Assembly: GCA_002269645.1 (NCBI GenBank)
Contig: NIVC01005216.1
Coordinates: 1-20,876 of the forward strand
Direction of reading: 5' to 3'
DNA length: 20,876 bases
Origin: Macrostomum lignano
Taxonomy: Eukaryota
The notes under the pieces were generated by a model. That model made no database searches. It was not told the origin of the DNA and saw only the letters and a list, made by a program, of their open reading frames with translations. The translations under genes were made by a program, and so were the position numbers. This document shows, piece by piece, positions 2,076-20,876 of this stretch. The number at the start of each line of letters is the position of its first letter. The stretch's first letter is position 1.

Positions 2076-2664
2076 GCACCCAAGCCAAGGACACATTCGT
2101 TCATTCATCTGTCATCAGTGCCATCACAAAACGAGATTAAAGTGATTGCTTGAATTGTTGAATCATCAAGAAACATATTTTACAACTAATAAAATTGAAT
2201 TAAGCCTATATGTTTAGTTGGGGTTAGTAGTACCATGCAAAAATATTATCCCAGCCCGTTTTGTTTCGGGCTTCTTTTTTACTTGTAAGAGTATTGTATC
2301 GAAAATAAATCAATAAAGCGTTGGTTAAGCGTTGTTTGAGGGTTGTCAAACACCGTTGGAATTCAGCCGATGAAGTATAGTATCACACGCGATAATAAAT
2401 CGTTCTATGGAAAATAAAGTCTGAGGATGCGTTTTTATCAAGCCAAGGCGAAGACGAGAGGCCTGAGAACAAGCAAAAAGGAGTTATATAAGTAGCATCT
2501 GGAGTGGTAGCGAAGAAATAAAAGTCAAAACTATTTTACCACATGAGGCCAATGTTTTAGATGAGCACAGCGGCTCTCCAAAGAAACATTTTTACTCAAG
2601 CTGTCATACATCTCAATGCGCCTGCATGCCGTACATGCAGATTAAATTTGGTGGAAATAGCTTA

Positions 2665-3417
2665 AGTAGAAGGCATGAGGGGGCTTCTGGGACAAAATTT
2701 TTCACCTCCTCCATAATCCACCTAAATCCATCCATATTATCCCCGACAGAATCAGAAAAAAAGGGGGGTCGCACTCGCTCACAAAACATCCTCCATAATC
2801 CCATTAAATCCATCCATATTATCCCTGACAGAATCAGAGCATAACAGGTGTCCTAGTTGCTCCGAAAACTTCGAACATAATCCCATTAAATCCATCCATA
2901 TTATCCCTGAATCAGAGCATAACAGGTGTCGCACTCGCTTACAAAACTTCGAACATAATCCTCCTAACCTATCCTCCTTCCTCCACGACAGAATCAGAGC
3001 ATAGCAGGTGTCCTACATAATCCACTGACATCCACCCATAGCATCTTCGAAACAATCAGAAAACAATCTGTATTCTTCTCCACACATTCAATTCGCAATT
3101 CGCTACGCATCCCAAAGACTTTGAATCCCCTAACCCAGGGTCCTTACCCTTTGAAAAAAAAATTAAATTTTCTCTAAAAATGTTTCCAGTTGTCTCTCCG
3201 GGTTCTTATTACAAAGCGCACGAGCCTAATTACAAGAGTAAGTACCGATGCAAGAAGGAATGCAGCGAGTACATGAGAAAATATTGGCCCAACGTTGATA
3301 TCAATGTCCCTAATATTAATCTAGCTCTCCAAAGACATTAGTTTCATAAGTATGGAGTAACCTATGTAAAAGATTACGATAGCTACTATAACTTTGCAGA
3401 AATCATTAGGCAATTGT
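2665..3417 (+). repeat. Left terminal inverted repeat (753 bp)
   Basis: Reverse complement of 19828-20522. Homology runs from AGTAGAAGG to ...AGGCAATTGT, with substitutions and indels. Confidence 0.93.
2711..3070 (+). repeat. ~80-bp modular minisatellite inside the left TIR (about 5 units)
   Basis: CATAATCC(CATTAAATCCATCCATATTATCCCTGACAGAATCAG) recurs at 2711, 2793, 2876, 2954 and 3016. The last two units are degenerate. Confidence 0.85.
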
Positions 3418-3419
3418 GA
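3180..3419 (+). CDS. TIR-embedded small protein (~79 aa), left copy, with internal TAG at 3339-3341
   Basis: MFPVVSPGSYYKAHEPNYKSKYRCKKECSEYMRKYWPNVDINVPNINLALQRH*FHKYGVTYVKDYDSYYNFAEIIRQL*. AAAA-ATG leader like the other viral genes. Differences from the right copy are enriched in synonymous changes. Confidence 0.6.
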
Positions 3420-3423
3420 TTTC

Positions 3424-4285
3424 TTACATTCTCTCAATGATCAACGTCAATACAAACTCTTCCCCATTAAAATCAACGCCCATCCCATCTTCAGTCTCAA
3501 ACTGTAGCACAATCTCGTGAATCTCCTTATTACTCAATACAACTCTTTTCACTGGATTTGGTTTCTCTACCACCATCTGTCCTCCAGCAACAGAGTTGGA
3601 GATGTTGTACAAAATATTCGTTCGCTTTCCCTTAAATACCCAATCAAGACTGAGATTGCTTCTGATTAGAATATTCAAACCCTTTACAATGTCTGCAATA
3701 TTGGGTGCTAAGAACAAACCGCTTACACTTTCCCGGACCATTCTAACAGTCCCCGATGCTTGAGTGGCGGTCTGCGCCGCGGATTCTGCCTTATAAACTT
3801 TCTTCTCGAATCCTAGTTCCCTATACCAAGTGTCATCTTTAAACTCAACCTCCGCATTTTGTGAACTTGCATGACCACTCTCATTACAGTGAGATCATAG
3901 GTTAGTTTGACAGGGAACAGTTTCTTCTCTGGCTTACTCGCATCAGGTGTCTCAAAATGGCCTCTCTTAGTAAAGACATTTTCTAGAAAGTTATTGTAGG
4001 TATCCACACTTTGCGTGCTCACATGGAATACCACAGGGTCTGCTGCTGCACCTTTCCATTTGTAATAAAACTTATTATTTGCTGCCATCACATTAGGAAC
4101 GTTTGACCAACCAGTGAAGTCGTTAAGATAGACATGGTAATTAGCACCTGGATCCAGGCGAATCGCCTGCTCTAATTTTTCAACAAACATCCCGTTTGAG
4201 TCATTAATTCGCCAGTTATTGTAATAGGAATGCTCTCCTTAGAGTGTGAAACAATGTTATTTAGTCTTTCGGCTATAGCTTCCAT
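3424..4285 (-). CDS. mCP: Minor capsid protein (penton-like), ~287 aa after repairing 2 apparent 1-nt deletions
   Basis: Joins AAAAAA-ATG at 4285 (MEAIAERLNN...) with ORFs 3813-4190 and 3424-3741. The C-terminus ETEDGMGVDFNGEEFVLTLII is Polinton penton-like. Adjacent to MCP. Confidence 0.8.
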
Positions 4286-4307: not shown

Positions 4308-5593
4308 TTAAACTTTACTGGATGAATTGTTGATCATGTTAAGCTTCACCTTCCTCTCAAATGCATAGATAATGTACAGGTCCACGGGTGTTGCGACAGT
4401 CCTTTCAATGTTAGTCACGATATTCACAGGGCTGTTATCAGTAGGCATTTGTCTGGCAGACACATCAGCGCCAAACATCGGATATAGAGTTCCATATTGA
4501 AGAGCAGTGATAGCAATTCCATTGTTCTCTTTCACAGCCAAGTCGACCAACTCGCTGTAAAATTTGCTAATCTTGTTCTGACTGAAATCTCCATTTTGTG
4601 GCAGTGCAGGGTAAAGATTATCACTGATTTCATGCTGAATGGACCGCACGTCTCCATGCATGTAGCGTATAATGCTATTTGGGTTTCTCATATTAATAAT
4701 GATATACCTTGGATTGCTGCATGATCCCTCTTTAATGCAGATGTTTGTTCTAGTTTCGTTTCGCTCATCTCGACACATGTAGGCTGTGTATGCAACATCA
4801 ATGTCCTTCTCTATTGCCTTGAGATAATCCGCTTTTAGTGCAGTCTTTGGCTCAATGACTTCCAAATACAGCTCGATTCCGGTTAGCTTCACCTCCATCC
4901 TTGTGTGGTCCGCCCCAGTCCACAACACTCTACTGCGATCATCTCTAGTCATCTAAAGGTGTAGCTAAAGTTACTAGTCAGTCGATTAAATGTATTACAG
5001 AATCCACTCATGAATCTCAATGGTACAAATACATCAACAGACCGATACTGCGGGTTCTTAGCAGCATCATCAGCACCTTGCAATGCATAGTTGTATCTCT
5101 TCTTCCTCTTTTTATAGCCACTGTCATTGATGTCTCCTTCTTTTTCATCTGCAATAAAACCCGCACCACTTCCCAACTGAATAAAATCAGGATTCTCGAT
5201 CAAACAATGAGCGTCATAGACAATTCCAAAGTTGGCGATTCGCTCCAACTCTGTGCTCCCATTCGATACACTAAACTCCTTGAACATGTACGCCCAAAAG
5301 TTACTGATCAGAGCCACATCCGCATCATGCTTGTCAACGTTAGCACGAGCCGCATCCGCACCACCTTTTGTCTTGAATTGAAATGTCATATGGAAGCCGC
5401 TCTTAAGACTGTGCACACTAACCAGAGACGAACATCCATTGTATGTAAATGTCAGTGTTTGGCCAGGACCAAGATTAGTTTCATTCTGATTTTCCTGACT
5501 GGGAACTCTTACCTGAGTCGCTTTGATTGTGCTATCATCACTCAAAATAGGCTTGTTAATTTTGTAGAAAACTGGTGTCAGTGGGTCGTTCAT
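4308..5593 (-). CDS. MCP: Major capsid protein (double jelly-roll), ~428 aa after repairing one 1-nt deletion near 4952
   Basis: Two abutting 214-aa ORFs join at TTT AGA/ATG. Size, beta-rich sequence, VFVPLRFMSGFC and KLTGIELYL-type motifs, and position next to the penton gene. Confidence 0.82.
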
Positions 5594-7245: not shown

Positions 7246-7276
7246 AGGTACTTTCCGAGGGTACAAGACTAGTCTC

Positions 7277-7435
7277 AAATGACACATCTAAGTCCCAAAA
7301 TGACACATTAAGTCCAAAATGACACATCTAAGTCCCAAATGACACATCTAAGTCCCAAAATGACACATCTAAGTCCCAAAATGACACATCTAAGTCCCAA
7401 AATGACACATCTAAGTCCCGAAATGACACATCTAA
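7277..7435 (+). repeat. 21-bp tandem repeat AATGACACATCTAAGTCCCAA, ~8 copies
   Basis: ATGACACAT at 7279, 7300, 7319, 7339, 7360, 7381, 7402 and 7423. Confidence 0.95.
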
Positions 7436-7473
7436 ATTATTTATTATTTAATTTTTTTTTCATCATAGAAAAA

Positions 7474-8272
7474 ATGGACTTTTCAAACGACTTCAATCCT
7501 CACTGGACGCGTAATCAGATTAAGTTTTCTCATCATGAGTCAATCCCGAGTCACTTCAGATGCATTGTTGTTGGTTCATCAGGTTCAGGTAAAACATTCA
7601 GAGTCTTTAACATGCTTCTTAGACCTGGCTTTATCGACTATGACACTCTGCACATCTACTCTCCCACACTGTATCAAGATGAGTATAAAATGCTGATTTC
7701 TGGATTGCAAAACAAACTGAACAAAGAGGACATTATTCATGTTTTAATAACCAAAAATCCTTCCCAGTAACCCAGAAATTGTAGCTGCTGAATATGCAAA
7801 GCACCTCAAAGACAATGAAAAATGGCAGAACATTAAAGTGTTCACCTATGGAGATCCACAGGCTGATCCAAAGACCAAACTTCTACCCCAACCAGATGAG
7901 CTAGAAAAGGGGAGAAAGCATTTGATCGTCTTTGATGATTGTATGACAGGCCCACAGAAGCAGATAGAAAACTATTTTACAAGAGGGCGACATAACAATT
8001 GTAATGTAATTTACATTGCACAGAATTGGTTCGAGCTCCCGAACAAAACAATTCGTGGGAACTGCAATCTGATTCTCCTGTTTCCAACCATTCCACAGGA
8101 CAGGTTAAAAAGATTTTACAATGAGGTCATTGCGCCTGCCTATTTCATAAATCCAACAAAAAACTCAAGCAGAAAGATTTCACAAGAGGAATTCGTTAAT
8201 CTTTGCTATGACAAGTGGAATCAGCCTTACCAGTTTGTGATTATCAGCAAAGAAAAAAGAACTGTAATTTAA
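7474..8272 (+). CDS. ATPase: A32/FtsK-HerA-type DNA packaging ATPase, ~266 aa after 2 repairs near 7745-7775
   Basis: Walker A GSSGSGKT, Walker B HLIVFDD, FTRGRHNN motif, IRGN. Start at tagaaaaaATG 7474. Confidence 0.93.
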
Positions 8273-8288
8273 AATTTGCTATTAAAAG

Positions 8289-9107
8289 ATGTCGATAAAC
8301 TTTGCAGGTGAATCCATTTCTGGCAACAGCGCTCTTACATCAGCTCAGATATCCATCCTTGACAGGCGATATATCAACAGCGACGAAAAGATCCCAGAGA
8401 TCAAACTGAATAAAAACAGACTGAAAGCCCTAGAGCGCTCCATGCACCAGTTGCAAATAAACATGGAAGATCTCAGGCTTAAAGTAGCTAGGCAGAAGTT
8501 TGAAAGTGATAAGCTTTATGTGCCGTTGTTAAACGCAACTAATGAACTAAGGTCAGAAATAACTTCGATAGTCTCGCTAATCAACGGCTTGAGATCATCA
8601 GTTAATCTTCTGGGAAATTCCACTGATAGACGGATGCGTATTCTTGAAGGAGGAGTTTTCACAAACACAGCTAAAGTAAATAATTTAGAAGAGTTCATGA
8701 ACCAGTCAACAGCGTTGCATGATAGAATTAAAGAAAACGTCGCAACCAACACAGTTAAAGTCAATAATTTAGAAGAGTTCATGACTCAGTCAACATCGTT
8801 GCATGATCGAATCAAAGAAAGACTTGAAGCATTAAAGAGAAAGGATGTATCACACAGTAGCTATCTAAACGGAATGTATAGCTCTTGGGGTAAAATAATA
8901 AGGAGGCTTGATCGTCTGGAGAGAACACTCAATCTTCGTGATATTGCTATTGATGAAGCAGAATCTGCTGCTCGTCCGGTCATGTCTACAGATCGAGTAG
9001 AAGGAGCTCTGGACCCCGCCGGAGTAATCCGGCACGCTCTCAAACGTCAGCCGCCCAGCCGCTGCCTGCTGGACTCGCGATCCTCCGGCGTCACGAGAGC
9101 CGCCTAG
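8289..9107 (+). CDS. Coiled-coil, fibre-like hypothetical protein (272 aa) with an internal 28-aa duplication
   Basis: Uninterrupted ORF with heptad-like L/I spacing. TNTAKVNNLEEFMNQSTALHDRIKE and TNTVKVNNLEEFMTQSTSLHDRIKE are 84 nt apart. The fibre role is inference only. Confidence 0.75.
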   Translation: MSINFAGESISGNSALTSAQISILDRRYINSDEKIPEIKLNKNRLKALERSMHQLQINMEDLRLKVARQKFESDKLYVPLLNATNELRSEITSIVSLINGLRSSVNLLGNSTDRRMRILEGGVFTNTAKVNNLEEFMNQSTALHDRIKENVATNTVKVNNLEEFMTQSTSLHDRIKERLEALKRKDVSHSSYLNGMYSSWGKIIRRLDRLERTLNLRDIAIDEAESAARPVMSTDRVEGALDPAGVIRHALKRQPPSRCLLDSRSSGVTRAA

Positions 9108-9198: not shown

Positions 9199-9947
9199 AT
9201 GGCCCAACAAAATTCTCTATACGATCAGTCTCAATACGTTGAACCTAAAATACCGACAGCACCAAACTCAATGGCACCGAATTCGAACACACAAAACCTG
9301 GCACCGAATCTGAATGCACCCAATATGAGCAACAAAAACTCTACCCCGTCATTACTTGTAACTCTCAACAGTTTCGACTGGTGGAGATTCAAAAAATGCG
9401 CGATGATCTTGAAAAAAATATTTTCCACAACACAAAGAAAATTAAGCGCTATGACAACCACTGTAAATTTTTCGACTACAGCAATATGATTCTAGGATCT
9501 GTGTCTGTTCTATCTGGATCTGCTGCAGCTGTCTCAGTGTTGCCAGTCATCACAGCCCCAATCGCAATCCCGCTCGGCTCTGTGGGTGCTGCATGTGGAC
9601 TTATTTCAGCAATTACTGGAGCATTAGCGCGAAACAGGCGAAAAAAACTAAAGCAGCTACAGGAGAAGCAAGTAAAAGAGAAAGGGGTGCACACTTCAAT
9701 CATAGGGTACATTTCAAGGGCAATCGAGGATAAGTTCATTTCAGAGGATGAGTTCAAAACCATTCAGGATCTTTATGAACAATCAATTCGAATGAACTTG
9801 AACATGGTCGGTACTGATGACATGAGTCAGCTGAGAAATGAACTCGAGAAAGTTCTTCAACATTATGTGGAAAGAAGGACAACGAGAAGTACAACGAGAA
9901 TGCACAATGAACCCTATGAAACACAGCCAAGAATAATTTCCTTGTAG
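9199..9947 (+). CDS. Polinton-type protein with two hydrophobic (TM-like) segments, ~249 aa after one repair near 9373
   Basis: MAQQNSLY...NSFRLVEIQKMRDDLEKNI...MILGSVSVLSGSAAAVSVLPVITAPIAIPLGSVGAACGLISAITGAL-ARNRRKK...ISRAIEDKFISEDEF. Confidence 0.75.
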
Positions 9948-10314
9948 GTCTTTCGTGTTTTGGTCATTGCATACAAAACAGTCATGCACAGCTCACCGCA
10001 AATATCACTGCTAAGACCTTGGAGAATAAAGTCTGAGCGATAAATTTTTTTATTATTTTTTCCCTTCATATAATTTCTTAGCTCTTCTGGTACTGCCGTC
10101 CCATAGCTATCGAAGTAATAACACTTGTGCTTGCGATCGGGATCAATCACCCAGCAAACCCAATGAGATCCTGGCTTATCGGTGGTGTCAAAGTTCATGA
10201 TGCCGCATTCTTTCTTAGAGGAAAATCAGGCAGAGTGTCCCTCATAAATATTCCTCTAAAGTTTGGGATTTCCAGTTCGTTAGCCAAATCTTCAAGAAAG
10301 TTATTTGTCGTCAT
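9914..10314 (-). CDS. PRO: Adenain-like cysteine maturation protease, ~133 aa after one repair near 10210
   Basis: FRGIFMRDTLP, NFDTTDKPGSHWV (His), YFDSYG (Asp), LQGLSSDICG (Gln/Cys). Start taaaaaATG 10314. Confidence 0.92.
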
Positions 10315-10347: not shown

Positions 10348-13300
10348 CTAAACCCAATATCCACCTCCTAAACCTAATCTCCAATGCCCGAACGGTAGAC
10401 TGTTGATATTGTCATCAAAAATGAATCTCTTGTTATCTGCACCTGACAGTCCAATCTTCTTTTGCTGAATTGTGTGAATAATATGGTTTTTAGATTGTAG
10501 CTTTGAGAACTCATGTGATGTCTTTTTGTTGCAATTCAAGGCGTCTCTGTATTCAGCTTCATTAATTTCCTTCCTAACCACACGTTTCGGAATTCCCTTT
10601 GATTTTTTAATTGGGTCTGACGACTCACATTTTACAAAATAGGACTTTGCTCTCAACCCAATGAATTCAGTGATTATGTCACCAGCAATCTCGTCCTTCA
10701 TTTTCCCAATCACTTTCTTGTTAGTGGCGTCAAACACTTGATCGCCATTCTGTGTCCTGCAAGATTCATCATACTCAGACAAGTCAAACAAATCTTTTTG
10801 CTGCAGCATGTCCTGATAAATGTCTTCTGTTTGAATGTCCATAATAAAACTGTCTGTGTCAGTGTACAAGAGTTTCATTTTATCCTTGTACTGCTGCTTC
10901 ATGCCATAGAAGAACTGGTACATCAGACGTTTTGATTCGTCGAGAACAGTGACACCTGTATAGATCGGCTTGCGCAGCGTCACCTTGGTTTTGTAAAATA
11001 TGATCACACCTAAGTAGCTATTAAAGATATGGAGTTCTTTGAATGTTGGCTTTGACATATTTGCCTGAATAACAGCAGGCTCTGATGAGGTAACAAGTTT
11101 CAGGTTTGTTCTTTTCCGCTCATTCTCAAGAGTCTTGCCATAGACAGAGTTGTTGGCCAACTTAAAGAGGTTCTTGTCAAAGTCGTTGGTTGCTTTGGTC
11201 CTAAACTGGGTGTTCTTATCAATGTAGGGTTTCATCCACGCTTCCTCTGTAAATGTAAGAGCCCTGTGAACTTTGGTGACCCTGCAACCAAGTGAGATAA
11301 AATACTGAAGCAGTTTGTAATGGATTTTGTAACGTGTCTTGTTGTTTAGATTCTGTGTTAGTTTCTCTGTATGTTCTTTTTCTGTTCCTGACAGGTGCCA
11401 AGTTCCATTATTATCATTGGGAGTTTCGATTATTTTCGGGCACTTGATGTTCTCTGGGAAGGGTGGAAAGTCAGAGAAATAGTCGTGAAGCTCTGGTGGA
11501 ATGTAAACATCAACCTCATAAATGGCAGCCAATGAAAAGTCCCATTTGAATTCTGATGAGGGTAGCCATCGAAAATCTCTAACTGGAAGATCTTGACTCA
11601 TCGCCCACCCGTAGAGATTATTAGCGTCCAAGTAAGTAATGTAGTTTGAGGGCTGCTCCTTATTGTAAGATTCAATGTAGGGATTGTTTGCTTTTGCATA
11701 CCTGTTAACGCAAATTGAGATCCCCCTCGCTTTGACGATTCGACAAAATTGTACATGTCAATGTCTGTAAGAAGTTCAATGTACCAATCTGGATCTTGAT
11801 CCCATTTCATTTTAAGCAAAGATTCCCAGCTAGTGGCAGGCAGAGACACATAATGTGCTGGATCGAGGCCATATGCTGTGTACCAGGTGTATCTGAAGGT
11901 TTCAAACACATCGGCCAGCAGAAACACATCTGTGAAGAGGTAAAGCAGGTGATACTGGAAGAAGTTTTGACAATTAAAGTAATTATAGACATGCTTCGCG
12001 TGCTCATAGTCTTTGTCAGAGATTCCAGAGTCTGTTAGCTTTGAAAAGAACTTCTCCTGTGGTGGTAAACCTTCTTCAAATACGTGATACCCAGTAATAT
12101 TTTCATAGGGGTAGAAGCCTTTCTTTCTTAAGTTTAAATGATTCATCACTGTTGTTAATTTTACTTGCAAACATCTTTGTATATGTACATTGTTCATCTT
12201 TTAGATTCTTGCTTAGTTCGTCTAGACTGGCAGCTAGAAATTGATATGAATCCTTCAGTCTTATTTTACCTGTACCCGAATTATCCTGTTTAATATCAAC
12301 ACACTTAAACTTCTCCTTGTTCTCTGCGATGCAATCAAGGTGTATGTCTGGAATCATGCCGATTTTTTCAACTATTAAATGCATGTCATAGTTCTTTGCG
12401 TTGTGACAAAATATCGTTAGATCATGAATGTTCGATTTTAGCTTTAGATTACAGGTGTTATGCGCTGCACCTCTAAATTTCCCAGTAAAGTGGCAGTGGT
12501 CCCTAACGGTGGGGTTTTTAATATTAGTGCAAGTTAAATGTTTCCTGCAGATGTGGCAATGAGTTGCTGATAGGAAATTGCTTTCATCCTCCTCAGTCAT
12601 CATTATTGGAACAGGTTGAAGGGTGCTAATCACTTTTTGCAACTCTAACATTCTGGCAATAAACTGCTCCACACACTGCTCTCCAAAGAAATAATTATAC
12701 TCAACAAGTCCTTTTGTATTAATAAAGGCATATGCTACTGAATTGGGGACATGTTTTTGAGTTTGAGTTTGAGTTTTTGAGTTTTTGGCACGATTGAGCA
12801 TTCGAAATCAGCATATACAACAAATGGGAGCTTCTCCATCTTGTGATAGTTCTTAAACCGGAGATACTTCTCTTCAGCTGAAGGAAGAGAGCAGTTTGTC
12901 GGGTGATCCTCGCATGATAATTCATGCTCTGTAGTTTTTCAAAGCGTTCAGGTCCACTGTAATGCTTAAGGCACAAGCGGCAGATGGCAACAGCCTCGTG
13001 ATGATTATTCAACTGCTTGTGAATGAGTCTTGAAAGATCTTTAATCCAAACATAGTGAGCCTCCTCTAGTAAATTACCAATCACTAGAAGATCCACTTCA
13101 GTCCGCCTTTTCCCCTCAGGATCTAAAACGTCTTTGCTACATCTGACCGGTTGAACTTTCTCAGTTTTTTCACTCCACTCAAAGACTGTGATTCTAATTT
13201 TGTTATTAAACACTTCTTCTAGCTTTGGGATCTGAGAGATCGCCAAGCCTCCTTTGTCAAACCTGATTCCCTTCTTTTCGCATTCGATGAGATAGTAGTT

Positions 13301-14185
13301 GAAATAATTTTGATAATTTGAGGTTCTTTCGGGGTGGTGAGGGACACTAAAAAGTGCAGAAAGAACTGCCCATAGAGCACAGCAATTGTCTTTATTTTTA
13401 ACATTTATGCAAGCTTTTTTGCCGGCTAGCTTATGCGGGAGCTCTATATAAGAGGAGGCTTTAAGTGGGTCATATTTCATGACCATGACAGTCGCTCTTT
13501 GAATCCCTCCCACGACCCATCCGGAACCTCTGGATGTAAACGCTTCAATTTTCTTAGTGACATCTTGAAGGAAAGGATCCAGTGTGTCTGTAGGGGTGAA
13601 TGGCTTTGCCTTTGTTGTCATGTAATACTCGAGATGCTCAGTGGGTTTTGCAGGCATATAAAACGCAATCTTGAATGATATCTGTAGTTTAAAGGTCTTG
13701 CGTGTTTTGAGTGTGTGATCAACAACTGATTGGATGCTGTCTTTATAGTCGTAGATGTTTGCGGTGGTACCGTTGGTGTAATTGGGATTGTGTACTCTAT
13801 GTAATGTTCTGTAAACTTCCTCTGTGCAAAATTAATCTCTTCAATGGCAAGCTCCGACTCTTTTAAATGGATTAATTGCTCTAATTTCTCTTGTTCCTGC
13901 TTATTTTGTGGGTACTTTGCTTTTTCACCAGTGAGAGTTTCGTATTTGTTAACTAAGTTGCGACTCCTCTCTTGGTGTTCCTTTGCAGGATTTTTTATAG
14001 GCGCATACTGGTTGGATTCTAATTGATTGATGATTTCCAACTGTTTTTCATAGCTTCCCAGGTGACCAGGGTCGGTGTTAACTTTTGTTTGCATGCTTCT
14101 CTTAGTAATTACTTTTGTCTTGAAATGAGACGCCTTTTGAAAAATATTTGTTGACTAAATCTTTTGCTGGATTAGCTTTTGGCAT
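10348..14185 (-). CDS. pPolB: Protein-primed family B DNA polymerase, ~1280 aa after repairing 7 indel sites
   Basis: Exo motifs YADFE, HNAKNYD, YLFTDV. Pol motifs DANNLYGWAM, KLANNSVYGK, YTDTDS. KGFYPYE and an EndoVII-like Zn finger (CHIC...RDHCH...AHNTCN). Start 14185 is inferred; 14094 is the ORF-track start. Confidence 0.96.
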
Positions 14186-14768: not shown

Positions 14769-15787
14769 TTAATTAATTTCTGTGTCAGCTGGTATCACTA
14801 GGAGTTCAGCTCTAGTGAATGACCGCGTGGGGGATTTAGGGTTAAAGGCTGAGATAAAAAGTAATAGTCACCGAGTCGGAGGTAAAATGTCTGTCTATTT
14901 TATGTACATCAAGGCTGAAGTATGGATCTGTAGCTCTTCTTTTGGTGTCTTCTCTAGCTCTCCAGGTAGATATAAAAAGCGTAGAAACTCAGAGTTTGTC
15001 AGTATGTATGGTGATTCAACTCCTGGAAGCTTAGGGTAGTTCGAGGTGTGTTTTGTGTTGTGTGTGTTGTGTGGGGTTGTCGTGTTGTTGTCTGTTCTAT
15101 GAGATGCCTTAAGTTCGACAGTGTCTTGTTTAATTGCATGGGACGGTTTCAATCCAGTCATGCGTGTGACTTCATTGTTCAGTTGCTCTATAACAGTGGG
15201 GAGTCTTTCTGTCCACTTGGTATAGTACTGCCCGCACTCAGTTTGAGTTCTTGCGCTGTCTGCTTAGTGAATAGCCTCTTGGCTAGAGTTAGATTGAATC
15301 TTTCCACAAAAGCCTGGTCTCTGTGCAAGTTTGTTCTGCCATAGCGAATCTCTGTATTTTTCTTTTCCATAAGGGATTTCACTGCACCCATGAATTCCTT
15401 ACCCGGGTCGGTCATAAAGATTTCGGAGAGTTTTTATAAATATCTTGCAGTGCGCTGGCAACAACCTCTGACTTCTTCGTCTTGAGTGGGCGAGCTTCCT
15501 TATATCTGGAAGCAATGTCTGTAATTGTAGAGCATACTTGTAGCCTGAGTCATTGGGGAGAAACAAAAGATCTGCTTGGTGCGCTCATTAGGTTTATAAA
15601 TACTGAAATGGGGCCTTTCAAATTTTACTGGTGGGAAATAGACTTGAAAGACAGCCTGCTTAGAGAGCCATTTTTCTACTGTAGCTTTTGGTTCCTTACT
15701 CAGCTCCATGAGTTTACTAACGGCATTTTTGCCTACAAAGAATCCTTTGTCGCTGTAGTAGAGTTTTTTAAGTTTCTGATCTGTCAT
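14769..15787 (-). CDS. INT: Retroviral-like (rve) DDE integrase, about 6 apparent indels
   Basis: LKKLYYS, HQADLLFL (D), MTDPGKEF (D), QAFVERFNLTL (E), KRRATDPYFS, and C-terminal RSFTRAELLVIP. Confidence 0.92.
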
Positions 15788-15817: not shown

Positions 15818-16258
15818 ATGCAACGCTCTGGTGGTAAAATAGATTCACATGGACTGATAGAAAAGCTTCCTCATCCAAACAAAGGCTGGACACTTCCCGG
15901 CTATAAATATTGCGGGCCTTTGAATCCACTTGAAATACAGCTGGATGGAAAAACAACCAAATCCTGGGCATGAGCCTGTGAACGAGCTAGACTCTGTCTG
16001 CATGTGGCACGACGTTAAATATAGAGATTTTCCTGAGGAGAAGAATCGCTGGGACAAAGAAATGCTTAGGAGACTCGACAATATGGGGATTTCAAGCGGA
16101 TTTCGTGAGTCGATTGCTAGGAAATTAGTCAAGGCGTTATTTTTAGTAAGGCAAAGTTGGGATTAGGAATGGCGCTGAGGGTGGGTGCACGGGAGAGAGG
16201 GCGGACGCACTTTATTTTGTGTGCTCCAAACAATGAATTAGAAGACTGGGGCTGTTGA
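15818..16258 (+). CDS. Parvovirus VP1u-type phospholipase A2
   Basis: Ca-loop LPGYKYCGP, PVNELDSVCMWHDVKY (HD catalytic), WDKEML, VKAKLGLG after repair. Without the second repair it ends at 16166. Confidence 0.88.
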
Positions 16259-16904: not shown

Positions 16905-17046
16905 GTATGTGCAGGGTCTAAACTATGCAACAATATAAAAGGTTTCTGGGTGAGCGCCTGCTTTTTCTCCCCAGTCCCACCACACTGAACACCCCGCCCA
17001 GTTCTGCCTGTCTCTTTTTTTCTAGCCTCCGCAACTAGTCAAACAG

Positions 17047-18563
17047 CCACCTCAGAAAATGAAACCGCTGGTTTCAAATTTTGAGGTGGGTGATCCTCTA
17101 AAGACGCTTGTGTCTTTCTTTTTCTAGCCTCCCAACCCCCCAGAGAGGGTCGGGGGGTCTGGGTAGACCAACTCTCAGGCCAGCCCTTCTCTCACCCGTC
17201 TTGCCCCACCGCCTCTCATTCCAAGCCTGTCCTCTGGGTGCCTCTCTTCGCAACTAGCTCTCTCTAAGCCTCCTAGTCAAACAGCCACCTCAGAAAATGA
17301 AACCGCTGGTTTCAAATTTTGAGGTGGGTGATCTGAGTTCTGCACTGCTTCTCTAGCCTCCGCAACTAGCTCTACGCTCTCCCGAGCTCATTCTATTTTT
17401 AGTCAAACATAACACTAGCGATCTCGCGCTGGGGGTAGAGGGGCGCCTGGGAATTTTGAGTCTCCCGTTGTACTGAAATCTCCTTCCCTTGAGCTCCTCT
17501 CCCTTTCCCTTCCCCAGCAGTCCGTGCCAGAGCATTGGGCTCTCTTTGCACAGGGGCGCCACCTCAGAAAATGAAACCGCTGGTTTCAAATTTTGAGGTG
17601 GGTCTACACTGCTGCGCTATCCAGTTCTCACCCGCCCTGCCACTCACTGCATGCAGTCCGCGCATTCCGCCACAAGTCCCCCTTCTCTCTCACCCACCCT
17701 CCCTCTGCAATTCACTTCTGTGCAGTGCAGCGCCAAAGCCAAAAGAGAATTGCAGAGGGTTGAGGGTTGATCCGGGCGGGAGGGGGTCTTTCTTTTTCTA
17801 GCCTCCACAACTAGCCGCTCCGTTTTCTTCTGCGCTCTCCCGAGCTTAGTCAAACAGCCACCTCAGAAAATGAAACCGCTGGTTTCAAATTTTGAGGTGG
17901 GTCTACACTGCTGCGCTATCCAGTTCTCACCCGCCCTGCCACTCACTGCATGCAGTCCGCGCATTCCGCCACAAGTCCCCCTTCTCTCTCCACCCACCCT
18001 CCCTCTGCAATTCACTTCTGTGCAGTGCAGCGCCAAAGCCAAAAGAGAATTGCAGAGGGTTGAGGGTTGATCCGGGCGGGAGGGGTCTTTCTTTTTCTAG
18101 CCTCCACAACTAGCCGCTCCGTTTTCTTCTGCGCTCTCCCGAGCTTAGTCAAACAGCCACCTCAGAAAATGAAACCACTGGTTTCAAATTTTGAGGTGGG
18201 TGATCTCTTCTATGCTCTCCCAACGCATGGTATGGGTTTTATTTTTAGAACTTACGTCTACACTCTACAAGGTACAACCTTCTGGTGATCCCTCCGTTTT
18301 CTTCTACGCTCTCCTAGTCAAACAGCCACCTCAGAAAATGAAACCGTTGGTTTCAAATTTTGAGGTGGGTGATCTGAGTTCTGCACTGCTTCCAGCAGAA
18401 ACATTTTTCTACACTGTCCCAAGCAAATTTGCTATTTTAATCAGACACCCACCTCAGAAAATGAAACCAGTGGTTTCAAAATTTGAGGTGGGCAATCAAA
18501 ATGGCATACTTGTTAAACAACCACCCCAGAAAATGAAACCAGTGGTTTCAAAATTTGAGGTTG
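17047..18563 (+). repeat. Array of 8 imperfect 43-bp palindromes CCACCTCAGAAAATGAAACC-NNN-GGTTTCAAATTTTGAGGTGG with variable spacers
   Basis: Copies start at 17047, 17285, 17559, 17858, 18157, 18326, 18449 and 18521. 17 of 20 stem positions are Watson-Crick. Confidence 0.95.
17559..18156 (+). repeat. Near-perfect 299-bp tandem duplication within the array
   Basis: 17559-17857 and 17858-18156 differ, as far as I can see, only by a +C and a -G in homopolymers. Confidence 0.92.
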
Positions 18564-18616
18564 GTGTCAATATTAGTAATAAAAAACTATCCAAGGATAA
18601 CTTGCTATTATTATAG
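18191..18616 (+). CDS. Possible 3' part of a repeat protein with VKQPPQKMKP(L/V)VS(N/K)FEVG units
   Basis: Open frame holding 3 repeat copies in phase (spacings 123 and 72 nt), with mostly synonymous repeat variation. It stops 43 nt from the convergent gene's stop. True start unknown. Confidence 0.4.
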   Translation: MRWVISSMLSQRMVWVLFLELTSTLYKVQPSGDPSVFFYALLVKQPPQKMKPLVSNFEVGDLSSALLPAETFFYTVPSKFAILIRHPPQKMKPVVSKFEVGNQNGILVKQPPQKMKPVVSKFEVGVNISNKKLSKDNLLLL

Positions 18617-18659: not shown

Positions 18660-19283
18660 TCAAAACAACAAGCCTTCGTCCACTTCCTGTTGCAGCATCG
18701 CAAGGGCCTCTGGCAAGTATGCAATCATCGACTTCAGCTTGTGCAGGGACATTGCAGATCTTTGTAGCACCGGATATTTCTCAGCTTGGTCAGCCAATTT
18801 CATCAGAAAGTTGGTCCACTGGCTGGTGAACGGTGCACGTCTTTTCAGCTCGTTGAACTGTTCCTTACTGAGAACCCGCTCCATTCTCAGAAAGATCCTG
18901 CCGAGCTGTAGGCCGTTTGCAAAGCCATGCTTACCATGCCGTTCAACTAGCTTATGAAGGTTGGCAATCTGTACAAGCACTGCGTCGATCGTAAATGTTC
19001 CCTGCGTAAATTCTTCTAGAGAATGCACTGGCACAGGCTCACTGTTGGTTTTGTAGGCCGTGCGCAACTCGTCCAGAGCCTTGCCGATTTGTAATTGCTT
19101 GTCGGTAGTTTTCGCTAGCCGTCCATTGATAGTTGGCTTCACGATTGGTGACCGAGCAATTGCATTGTATTTATCGGCCCAAACATTCCAGTTGTCGAGA
19201 TCTTTACTATAAAATACAGCCTTTATGAAGTTATCCAGATTTTGGATGTAAACGTTGTTGCCTGCTTGCATTTCTTCATCCAT
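18660..19283 (-). CDS. Hypothetical protein (207 aa), mostly helical, possible DNA-binding regulator
   Basis: Intact ORF, GCCATGG Kozak context, TATA and HSE upstream. GLQLGRIFLRME...F..L...FTSQWTNFLMKLA is loosely DUF3102-like by eye only. Confidence 0.8.
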   Translation of the reverse strand: MDEEMQAGNNVYIQNLDNFIKAVFYSKDLDNWNVWADKYNAIARSPIVKPTINGRLAKTTDKQLQIGKALDELRTAYKTNSEPVPVHSLEEFTQGTFTIDAVLVQIANLHKLVERHGKHGFANGLQLGRIFLRMERVLSKEQFNELKRRAPFTSQWTNFLMKLADQAEKYPVLQRSAMSLHKLKSMIAYLPEALAMLQQEVDEGLLF

Positions 19284-19481: not shown

Positions 19482-19825
19482 GGAAACCCGCAGATTTTCT
19501 ACTTATAGCCAGTATTTTCTATTAATGGTTGATTGGGGTTGCCTGGAAAGATCTAGGAAGACTGCTAAAAGAGCTGGGGGTTGAGAAGGCTGGGGGTTTA
19601 AACAAGGAACTAAATGGGCGTTTCTGAAGCTAGGCAAGGGATCTTCTGAGCTAGTTAAGGCTTGAGCTGGGCAAAAGCTTTTTCTCTATGCTGCACAGCC
19701 GCTCGCGCTATGACAAGAAACAGCTGCCATACCCATTCGCTATCACCCACCCACACAGCAAAATACATGCGTAAAAATATATATTAATGCAGTCTTAAAG
19801 TCTTAAAGCGTATTGTAACGACATT

Positions 19826-20063
19826 CTACAATTGCCTAATGATTTCTGCAAAGTTATAGTAGCTGTCGTAATCTTTTACGTAGGTTACTCCATACTTATG
19901 AACCAGTGTCTTTGGAGAGCTAGATTAATATTAGGGACATTGATATCAACGTTGGGCCAATATTTTCTCATGTACTCGCTGCATTCAAGTTTGCATTGGT
20001 ACTTGGATTTGTACAATGGATTAGGCTGAGTATAATAAGAACTGGAGAGACAACTGGAAACAT
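19826..20063 (-). CDS. TIR-embedded small protein, right copy (two apparent 1-nt deletions)
   Basis: 238 nt versus 240 in the left copy. Repaired: MFPVVSPGSYYTQPNPLYKSKYQCKLECSEYMRKYWPNVDINVPNINLALQRHWFHKYGVTYVKDYDSYYNFAEIIRQL*. Confidence 0.6.
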
Positions 20064-20522
20064 TTTTATTGAGAATTTAATTTTTTTCAAAGGGTAAGGA
20101 CCCTGGGTTAGGGGATTTAAAGTTTTAGGGATCTGGTTTCGCCGCTTCGGATTGAATGTGGGCCCCATGGGAGAAGAATGCAGATTTTTTTTCTGATTGT
20201 TTCGAAGATGCTATGGGTGGATGTTGGTGGATGATGTCAGTGTCAGTGAGCATAACAGGTGTCCACTGTCTGATTCTGTCGGGATAATATGGATGGATTT
20301 AATAGGATTATGTTCGAAGTTTTCAGAGCAAGTGCGGCCCCTCCCCTTTTTCATGATTCTGTCAGGGATAATATGGATGGATTTAATGGGATTATGGAGG
20401 ACGTTTTGTGAGCGAGTGCGACCCCCCTTTTTTTCTGATTCTGTCAGGGATAATATGGATGGATTTAATGGATTATGGAGGACGTGAAAAATTTTGTCCA
20501 AAAGCCCCTCATGCCTTCTACT
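19828..20522 (-). repeat. Right terminal inverted repeat (695 bp), with 3 clear minisatellite units at ~20270-20480
   Basis: Reverse complement of the left TIR. Shorter because it has fewer degenerate repeat units. Confidence 0.93.
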
Positions 20523-20613: not shown

Positions 20614-20775
20614 TTAAAAAGTTAACTTACGCTTTTTCATAAACTGTAGCATCGCTTGTCTCTCAAGACGACGTTTTTTTCTTAGATTGACCACGCTTCG
20701 TAGATCGTAGCGACCGCGTTGCTGCTGCTGCTTCTTCTTCTTCTTCATCTTCATCTGCTGCTGCTGTTGTTGCTT

Positions 20776-20808
<33 letters not shown>

Positions 20809-20835
20809 TTCCTCCTCCTCCTGCTGTTGTTGTTG

Positions 20836-20874
<39 letters not shown>
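20614..20874 (-). CDS. 3' end of a polyglutamine ORF running in from the window edge
   Basis: Frame reads Q(n)EEEEQ(n)KQ(n)MKMKKKKKQQQQRGRYDLRSVVNLRKKRRLERQAMLQFMKKRKLTF*. Mixed CAG/CAA/GAG/AAG codons stay in one frame. Not in the ORF track. Confidence 0.55.

Positions 20875-20876
<2 letters not shown>
20719..20876 (+). repeat. Compound (CTG/TTG/CTT/CTC)n trinucleotide repeat
   Basis: Directly visible; it encodes the polyQ/K/E tract on the minus strand. Confidence 0.95.

Follow-up and report, generated by a model that had tools for sequence, protein, structure and literature searches.

A 79-codon orphan reading frame, found once in each terminal inverted repeat (TIR) of a Polinton/Maverick-type element, behaves like a real, family-wide accessory gene of this element. 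Its two copies bear the mark of coding constraint, and each would be transcribed inward from its own end. The best overall explanation, to which a probability of about 55% was assigned, is that a real accessory gene was made diploid by end-to-end copying within the element and that the inner border of the repeat lies at the junction of two genes. Judged by its sequence, the orphan protein is of no known family.

The element and its ends

The window, i.e., the whole stretch of 20,876 nucleotides that was analysed, contains a Polinton/Maverick-type element of about 17.9 kb. One of each core gene was detected, as expected for a single element, and most of the core genes were split into several frame pieces. 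The features of the element outside the orphan frame are as follows:

2665..3417, + strand: left TIR, outer end placed by its AGTAGA start
2704..3050, + strand: repeats of about 82 nt occupying outer, non-coding sequence of the left TIR, indel-rich between the arms (13 gap runs)
3424..4285, - strand: penton-like (minor capsid) gene, convergent to the orphan, in three frame pieces
4308..5593, - strand: major capsid protein, in two pieces
7474..8272, + strand: packaging ATPase, in pieces (Pox_A32 at E 6.7e-4, which falls short of the curated cut-off)
9914..10314, - strand: adenovirus-type protease, in pieces (Peptidase_C5, E 0.0023), start inferred from its leader
10348..13657, - strand: protein-primed family B polymerase, in pieces (PF03175 on two of them)
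14895..15787, - strand: probable retroviral-type integrase, weak, in pieces (rve_3, E 0.2 on one piece)
15818..16166, + strand: phospholipase A2-like gene of the PLA2X type, split in two (PF08398 passes the cut-off with E 1.5e-6)
18660..19283, - strand: intact ORF of 207 aa, the next gene inward of the right orphan copy, 540 nt behind its stop
19828..20522, - strand: right TIR
20186..20471, - strand: matching repeats in the right TIR

The local alignment paired positions 2661-3417 with 20526-19828, and the resulting TIRs of about 750 bp (left) and about 700 bp (right) lie inside the 100-1500 bp range given for Polinton/Maverick elements (10.1101/2023.08.22.554363). Both ends of the element begin with AGTAGA; the motifs (AGT)2 and (AG)3 used for comparison have been described for the termini of vertebrate elements (PMC8097293). 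No target-site duplication of 5-8 bp was detected within 6 nt of either end, where two 4-mers only were found, and for this reason the copy was filed as Polinton-type and not as an intact insertion. Because of the missing duplication, the arms are perhaps not the two ends of one insertion: the flanks at 2665 and 20522 may belong to different insertions, and the arms themselves may be ends of different insertions or parts of a chimeric assembly.

The capsid module of Polintons (major capsid protein, penton, ATPase and protease) was present, with each match being modest and all of them together in agreement. The capsid piece scored 0.97-0.98 against Atlas clusters in which 10-13% of the members carry double jelly-roll families, its recognition value lying under the threshold of the tool. 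Two pieces of the polymerase matched PF03175 with E-values of 1.5e-4 and 2.3e-4, below the curated cut-off. For the integrase pieces, no match was found in the PDB, and the region 14895..15787 was tentatively assigned by its catalytic motifs, which we take to be those of a retroviral-type integrase. The PLA2-like gene, a hallmark of the Alpha-type adintovirus virion module (PMC8502044), was represented by the PF08398 match. For the 207-aa ORF, neither a Pfam family nor a homologue was found. This ORF is intact among broken genes and showed Atlas values of 0.90-0.93 to phage and bacterial hypothetical clusters, with DUF3102 at rank 30. No Rfam match was obtained anywhere in the window.

The element resembles the Polinton/Maverick elements (adintoviruses) of the PLA2X type in its length of about 18 kb, its TIRs of about 0.7 kb and the presence of polymerase, capsid, penton, ATPase, protease and PLA2-like genes (PMC8502044, PMC8097293). 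It differs from Polinton/Maverick elements in the absence of a target-site duplication and in the small orphan in the inner part of the TIR; its ends read AGTAGA, against (AGT)2 or (AG)3 in vertebrate elements.

The orphan frame in both arms

The orphan occupies the inner third of each TIR, with its reading direction inward from each end of the element. The two copies and their leaders are located as follows:

3140..3179, + strand: left leader, A+T-rich (0.78 over 40 nt), with AAAA before the ATG
3180..3419, + strand: left copy of the orphan gene, 79 codons, one internal stop at codon 54
19825..20063, - strand: right copy of the orphan gene, its register shifted twice by one base, at codons 8 and 55
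20064..20103, - strand: right leader of the same type, A+T 0.72

The initial annotation, made from the letters of the window, had reported a frame of about 79 codons behind an AAAA-ATG leader in both TIRs, an internal stop in the left copy and two single-base shifts in the right one. Alignment of the arms and a leader scan bore this out, the breaks being located at codon 54 (left) and at codons 8 and 55 (right). There are 19 AAAA-ATG sites in the window and ten of them have a leader with an A+T content of at least 72%, including both orphan copies and the starts of the penton, capsid and ATPase genes. An A+T content of 0.78 or more, as in the left leader, was reached by 1.5% of the 40-mers of the element.

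Within the frame, 27 of the 231 columns differ between the arms, and the differences are block-like. Nine codons differ synonymously between the copies, including a serine codon switched at all three bases, in line with the synonymous-type differences noted earlier. Seven amino-acid changes, which the initial annotation had not listed, were also found, five of them in codons 12-17; in codons 27-79, there was no replacement between the copies, breaks aside. The dN/dS ratio was 0.28 (one-sided Fisher p=0.003; pS 0.256, pN 0.082) on the 76 comparable codons that remained after exclusion of two codons with gaps and of both stops (internal and final), and it fell to 0.13 once the divergent codons 12-17 were removed; both values come from two close copies and hence from few sites. 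When changed codons were sorted into synonymous and other in all six frames, the orphan frame was the best with 9/8 (seven replacements and the stop), the remaining five giving 0/15, 4/11, 0/17, 2/13 and 5/10. The observed synonymous share was matched in 0 of 20,000 permutations preserving the substitution types, under a null that scatters changes which are actually clustered. The orphan frame was also the best of the six in its fit to the codon usage of the element's genes.

Sister copies were sought in sequencing reads. Part of the stretch was present in 20 of the 24 listed runs, which came from seven studies of one organism, and four runs (X1, X7, X13 and X14) were compared using read tables that listed 40 of the 109 substitution rows, 12 of the 26 indel rows and 32 of the 2,098 pieces. 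The letter that makes the internal stop of the left copy is replaced by one that gives a sense codon in X7, X13 and X14 throughout and, in X1, in 169,297 of the 169,553 depth units. The other 256.5 units in X1 correspond to the depth of a single contig with seven substitutions and a one-base gap. No contig matching the left copy at the internal stop was present among the pieces listed; as contigs drop rare variants, this does not prove an error in the left copy.

Among the 32 listed pieces, seven lay wholly in the frame, of which six were gap-free with 8-17 substitutions and one was gapped; of the nine pieces reaching the upstream DNA, seven were gapped. A 222-nt contig over codons 1-72 was free of gaps, and its nine substitutions all appear in the listed rows. 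The 12 listed indel rows (of 26) comprised seven upstream, two in the penton gene and three in the frame, the latter summing to 3 nt, and none of the 12 fell at the shift sites of the right copy. Random stops and indels in sister copies, named in the initial annotation as the pattern that would speak against a gene, were not seen, and the variation within the frame was mostly gap-free. Broken copies do exist in the host, as one X1 contig has a one-base gap inside the frame. If the orphan is a real gene, the breaks in the two copies of the window would be either damage private to these copies or errors of the assembly, as with the frameshifts of the core genes. The two arms have the same letter at codon 38, one that is absent from most of the read depth.

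Two runs presumed to be RNA covered the frame, but their cover also extended upstream of it and into the penton gene. The cover in X14 faded near 3600-3730, where the DNA runs continued, and no such fading was observed in X13. The summed depth of the frame relative to the DNA beyond it was 1.4x in X1 and 1.9x in X7, depth not being a measure of copy number. In summary of the coding evidence, the dN/dS ratio, the frame comparison, codon usage, the leader and the read variation all support a real gene at both ends, as had been proposed.

The inner border of the repeats

The homology between the arms ends at the first base of the orphan stop codon (3417/19828), as first noted from the letters: the last shared base is T, after which the left copy is completed to TGA and the right one to TAG. 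On the left, the stop codon of the convergent penton gene follows at 3424-3426, 4 nt past the orphan stop. In the next 300 nt past the stop, the similarity between the two sides scored 18 against a shuffle mean of 18.4, and 63% of 500 shuffles reached 18. The non-coding outer part of the TIR is still alignable, with 252 matches and 21 mismatches. For a repeat to include the complete orphan but no penton sequence, its end must fall between about 3416 and 3423, i.e., within about 7 nt. The coincidence of the border with a stop codon needs no special rule, because the sole harmless breakpoint lies there. The claim that coding constraint defines the TIR boundary was upheld in so far as the border lies at the orphan stop, but the penton stop 4 nt further on limits it equally. 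The border probably marks the junction of two gene modules and is held by both genes, the first of these points following from the geometry and the second presupposing selection on each gene.

The penton neighbour has ten relatives at 67-84% identity. A structural model of a penton relative gave capsid and penton chains as its best matches, with the mavirus penton at Z 6.3 (rmsd 3.9, 106 aligned). The penton relatives (P0003-P0015, 67-84% identity) come from ENA and Logan contigs and represent close relatives of the element in other samples. Scans with the polymerase and the penton relatives found no related element with its flanks.

Both continuations past the orphan stop occur in reads. The left junction into the penton gene was crossed by contigs of three runs (record 6 in X1, records 30 and 31 in X7 and record 12 in X13), and the right-type continuation was seen in X14. 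One contig each in X7 and X13 has a loose end of 8-10 nt, in which the penton stop is directly followed by an ATG (3420). These loose ends hint at other family copies with a different gene at the penton junction, and the gene content of the left end may be polymorphic.

In the proposed mechanism, one end of the element would have been copied onto the other, which would make the orphan diploid. The copying could proceed via a panhandle, in which the ends of the displaced strand pair during protein-primed replication. A breakpoint within the interval of about 7 nt would spare both the orphan and the penton gene, and the border would then be kept in place by selection on both of them and not on the orphan alone. 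Regeneration of TIRs after truncation has been reported for endogenous virophages (PMC8547959), and panhandle pairing is the usual model for restored homology of ends, for which direct evidence is lacking (PMC11886824). Against this explanation stand the absent target-site duplication and the 27 differing columns, which make diploidy within one intact element presumptive; nor did any homologue or fold match point to the proposed function of the protein, the structural model being poor (pLDDT 54).

Other explanations were weighed against this one. A chance open frame in the TIR was considered very improbable. It would agree with the broken state of both copies in the window and with the lack of homologues in the searches described below, and the openness of the frame alone is weak evidence for a gene: at most one stop in a given frame of such composition occurred in 2% of shuffles, and a reverse frame likewise has one stop only. 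The synonymous bias, the three-base serine switch, the leader, codon usage and the gap-free read variation, on the other hand, all favour one frame. Another account accepts the gene but places it at one end, with the window joining the ends of two subfamily copies, either by ectopic recombination or because a long-read assembly collapsed them; diploidy would then be rare or unreal. The missing target-site duplication, the block-like differences between the arms and the frameshifts throughout the core genes fit such a chimera, as do the loose ends in X7 and X13, read as copies with other ATG-starting DNA after the penton gene. This account was nevertheless regarded as rather improbable, since the left junction is bridged by contigs from three runs, X14 has the right-type continuation, the core genes form a single set and the minority letter at codon 38 is common to both arms.

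The model put forward with the initial annotation was that an ancestral repeat had been longer, that the sequence past the stop had eroded and that the orphan alone sets the border. It draws on the end of homology inside the stop codon, on the different stops of the two copies and on the synonymous bias, which is real; in addition, X1 has a third continuation whose stop appears to come one codon further on (consensus agreement of only 0.61, three contigs). Pure erosion fits less well because the outer non-coding repeat is alignable and no decayed similarity is left past the stop. Moreover, the left neighbour is penton coding DNA, so that an older and longer arm would have fitted there only if the left end had since been rebuilt. 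The erosion of a longer repeat was therefore rated unlikely, and end-to-end copying with a border at the gene junction was preferred.

The orphan protein and related systems

The orphan protein contains 12 Lys and Arg residues against 7 Asp and Glu residues. It had been described as rich in Cys, His and Tyr, of which the enrichment in Tyr was confirmed (11 against 3.1 expected, p=3e-4) and that in Cys (2 against 1.3) and His (3 against 2.0) was not; the composition gives no support to the suggested Cys/His metal-binding protein. Residues C24, C28, H53 and H56, kept in both copies, would by their spacing be the candidate ligands of a metal. A single-sequence model consisted of three helices with the pLDDT value given above.

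No homologue of the orphan was found among 5.8 billion proteins of 43-139 aa. A search of 1.84 billion representatives returned one match (E 2.5e-4), a 145-aa threefold repeat, which was judged spurious. Searches of viral contigs, JGI metagenomes and phage records gave no homologue either. The best Pfam match was RNase T2 with E 0.029, below the cut-off, and the best matches in PHROGs and among PDB sequences had E 0.2 and E 1.7, respectively. Fold searches with the weak three-helix model gave a best Z of 3.4 and no Foldseek match, a result that says nothing for a new fold. A suspected likeness to the winged-helix origin-binding domain of P4 alpha was rejected, as the comparison scored -0.1 bits, a value reached by 39% of 1,000 shuffles, and the hhalign probability was 0.3%. 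The profile used was built from P4 and 61 distinct relatives (71 loci, with six short ones dropped and duplicates merged); it is narrow, and other winged helices lie outside its reach.

A tentative role, wholly inferred, is that of a small, basic, Tyr-rich protein, helical for the most part, that would bind nucleic acids and assist replication or early transcription. This guess was made because of the origin-adjacent place of the gene, its basic and aromatic make-up and its two-copy dose. A role in interaction with the host follows close behind: the diploid gene might encode a protein directed against silencing or innate defence, as many poxvirus terminal genes do, which was regarded as possible and yet doubtful. 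The orphan is restricted to its lineage and has a fast N-terminal block with five replacements in six codons. Such roles have been described for poxvirus TIR genes, along with weaker purifying selection on TIR genes, but the TIR genes of megamimiviruses serve mostly DNA replication, recombination and repair (PMC13712841). Pfam and PHROGs gave no known host-interaction domain, and the absence of replacements in codons 27-79 also argues against this role. A narrower form of the helper reading appears improbable, namely that the Polinton has its own replication helper, which binds either the single strand displaced during replication or the origin at the terminus, that a need for it in bulk keeps both copies and that the border is reset at gene junctions. 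If true, the replication helper would be an accessory protein type of protein-primed replication that was not found described for Polintons in the literature searched. The protein-primed replication of PRD1 and of adenovirus uses such an accessory protein.

The single-strand binding proteins P12 and P19 of PRD1 are comparable by analogy only, as small accessory proteins of protein-primed replication (PMC11886824). PDB sequence and fold searches gave nothing significant for a similarity of the orphan to P12 or P19. Their genes are located in the terminal early region of PRD1 and are not known to be duplicated in its repeats.

Genes within TIRs are common in megamimiviruses and poxviruses, and they are likewise duplicated, fast-evolving and located in terminal repeats of linear DNA genomes, although these genomes are far larger (PMC13712841). 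In four of seven maps from this source, border genes occur at one end only, the opposite of the between-gene border observed here (PMC13712841). Butterfly polintons also carry genes in both TIRs, with two copies per insertion, but their 2-kb TIRs contain hexon and adenain genes, in contrast to the 0.75-kb TIR with a single orphan and an end at its stop; the section on TIR genes in that Pannagram preprint gives no account of the position of the TIR border (bioRxiv 10.1101/2025.02.07.637071). Genes inside Polinton TIRs are thus already in print, and the orphan protein is the new part. Neither a short orphan in Polinton TIRs nor a repeat border at a stop codon was found in the literature searched, which included PMC8363768, PMC11296320, PMC12220804 and 10.1101/2022.07.28.501842, with Repbase and most subscription journals outside the scope. 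A gene of 79 codons could be missed because surveys took ORFs over 100 aa (PMC8502044) or models of core genes (PMC8097293).

Polinton TIRs are usually taken as non-coding cis ends, and the short constrained gene described here means that comparable genes may lie hidden in other elements. Because the family has many copies, a repeat border set between stop codons just 4 nt apart offers a testable case for the rebuilding of repeats, and the impact is modest as long as the orphan protein has no function assigned.

Several further repeats and frames were recorded in the window. Eight imperfect palindrome copies of about 46 nt, partly in 299-nt tandem units, lie at 17032-18587 in the right arm of the element and could form a putative binding-site or origin array. 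At 7274-7438, just upstream of the ATPase gene, a 21-nt unit occurs in seven to eight tandem copies. An internal in-frame duplication of 84 nt (28 codons) was found at 8661-8820 within a coiled-coil-like ORF of 272 aa. About 800 nt outside the left end, a piece of an LTR retrotransposon (1-1850, - strand) was identified by an aspartyl protease match, and this piece presumably also includes a gag-like region and a primer site. Outside the right end, at 20614-20876 (- strand), there is a poly-Gln frame with a Lys/Arg-rich tail at its end, which may be a host repeat or part of another element.
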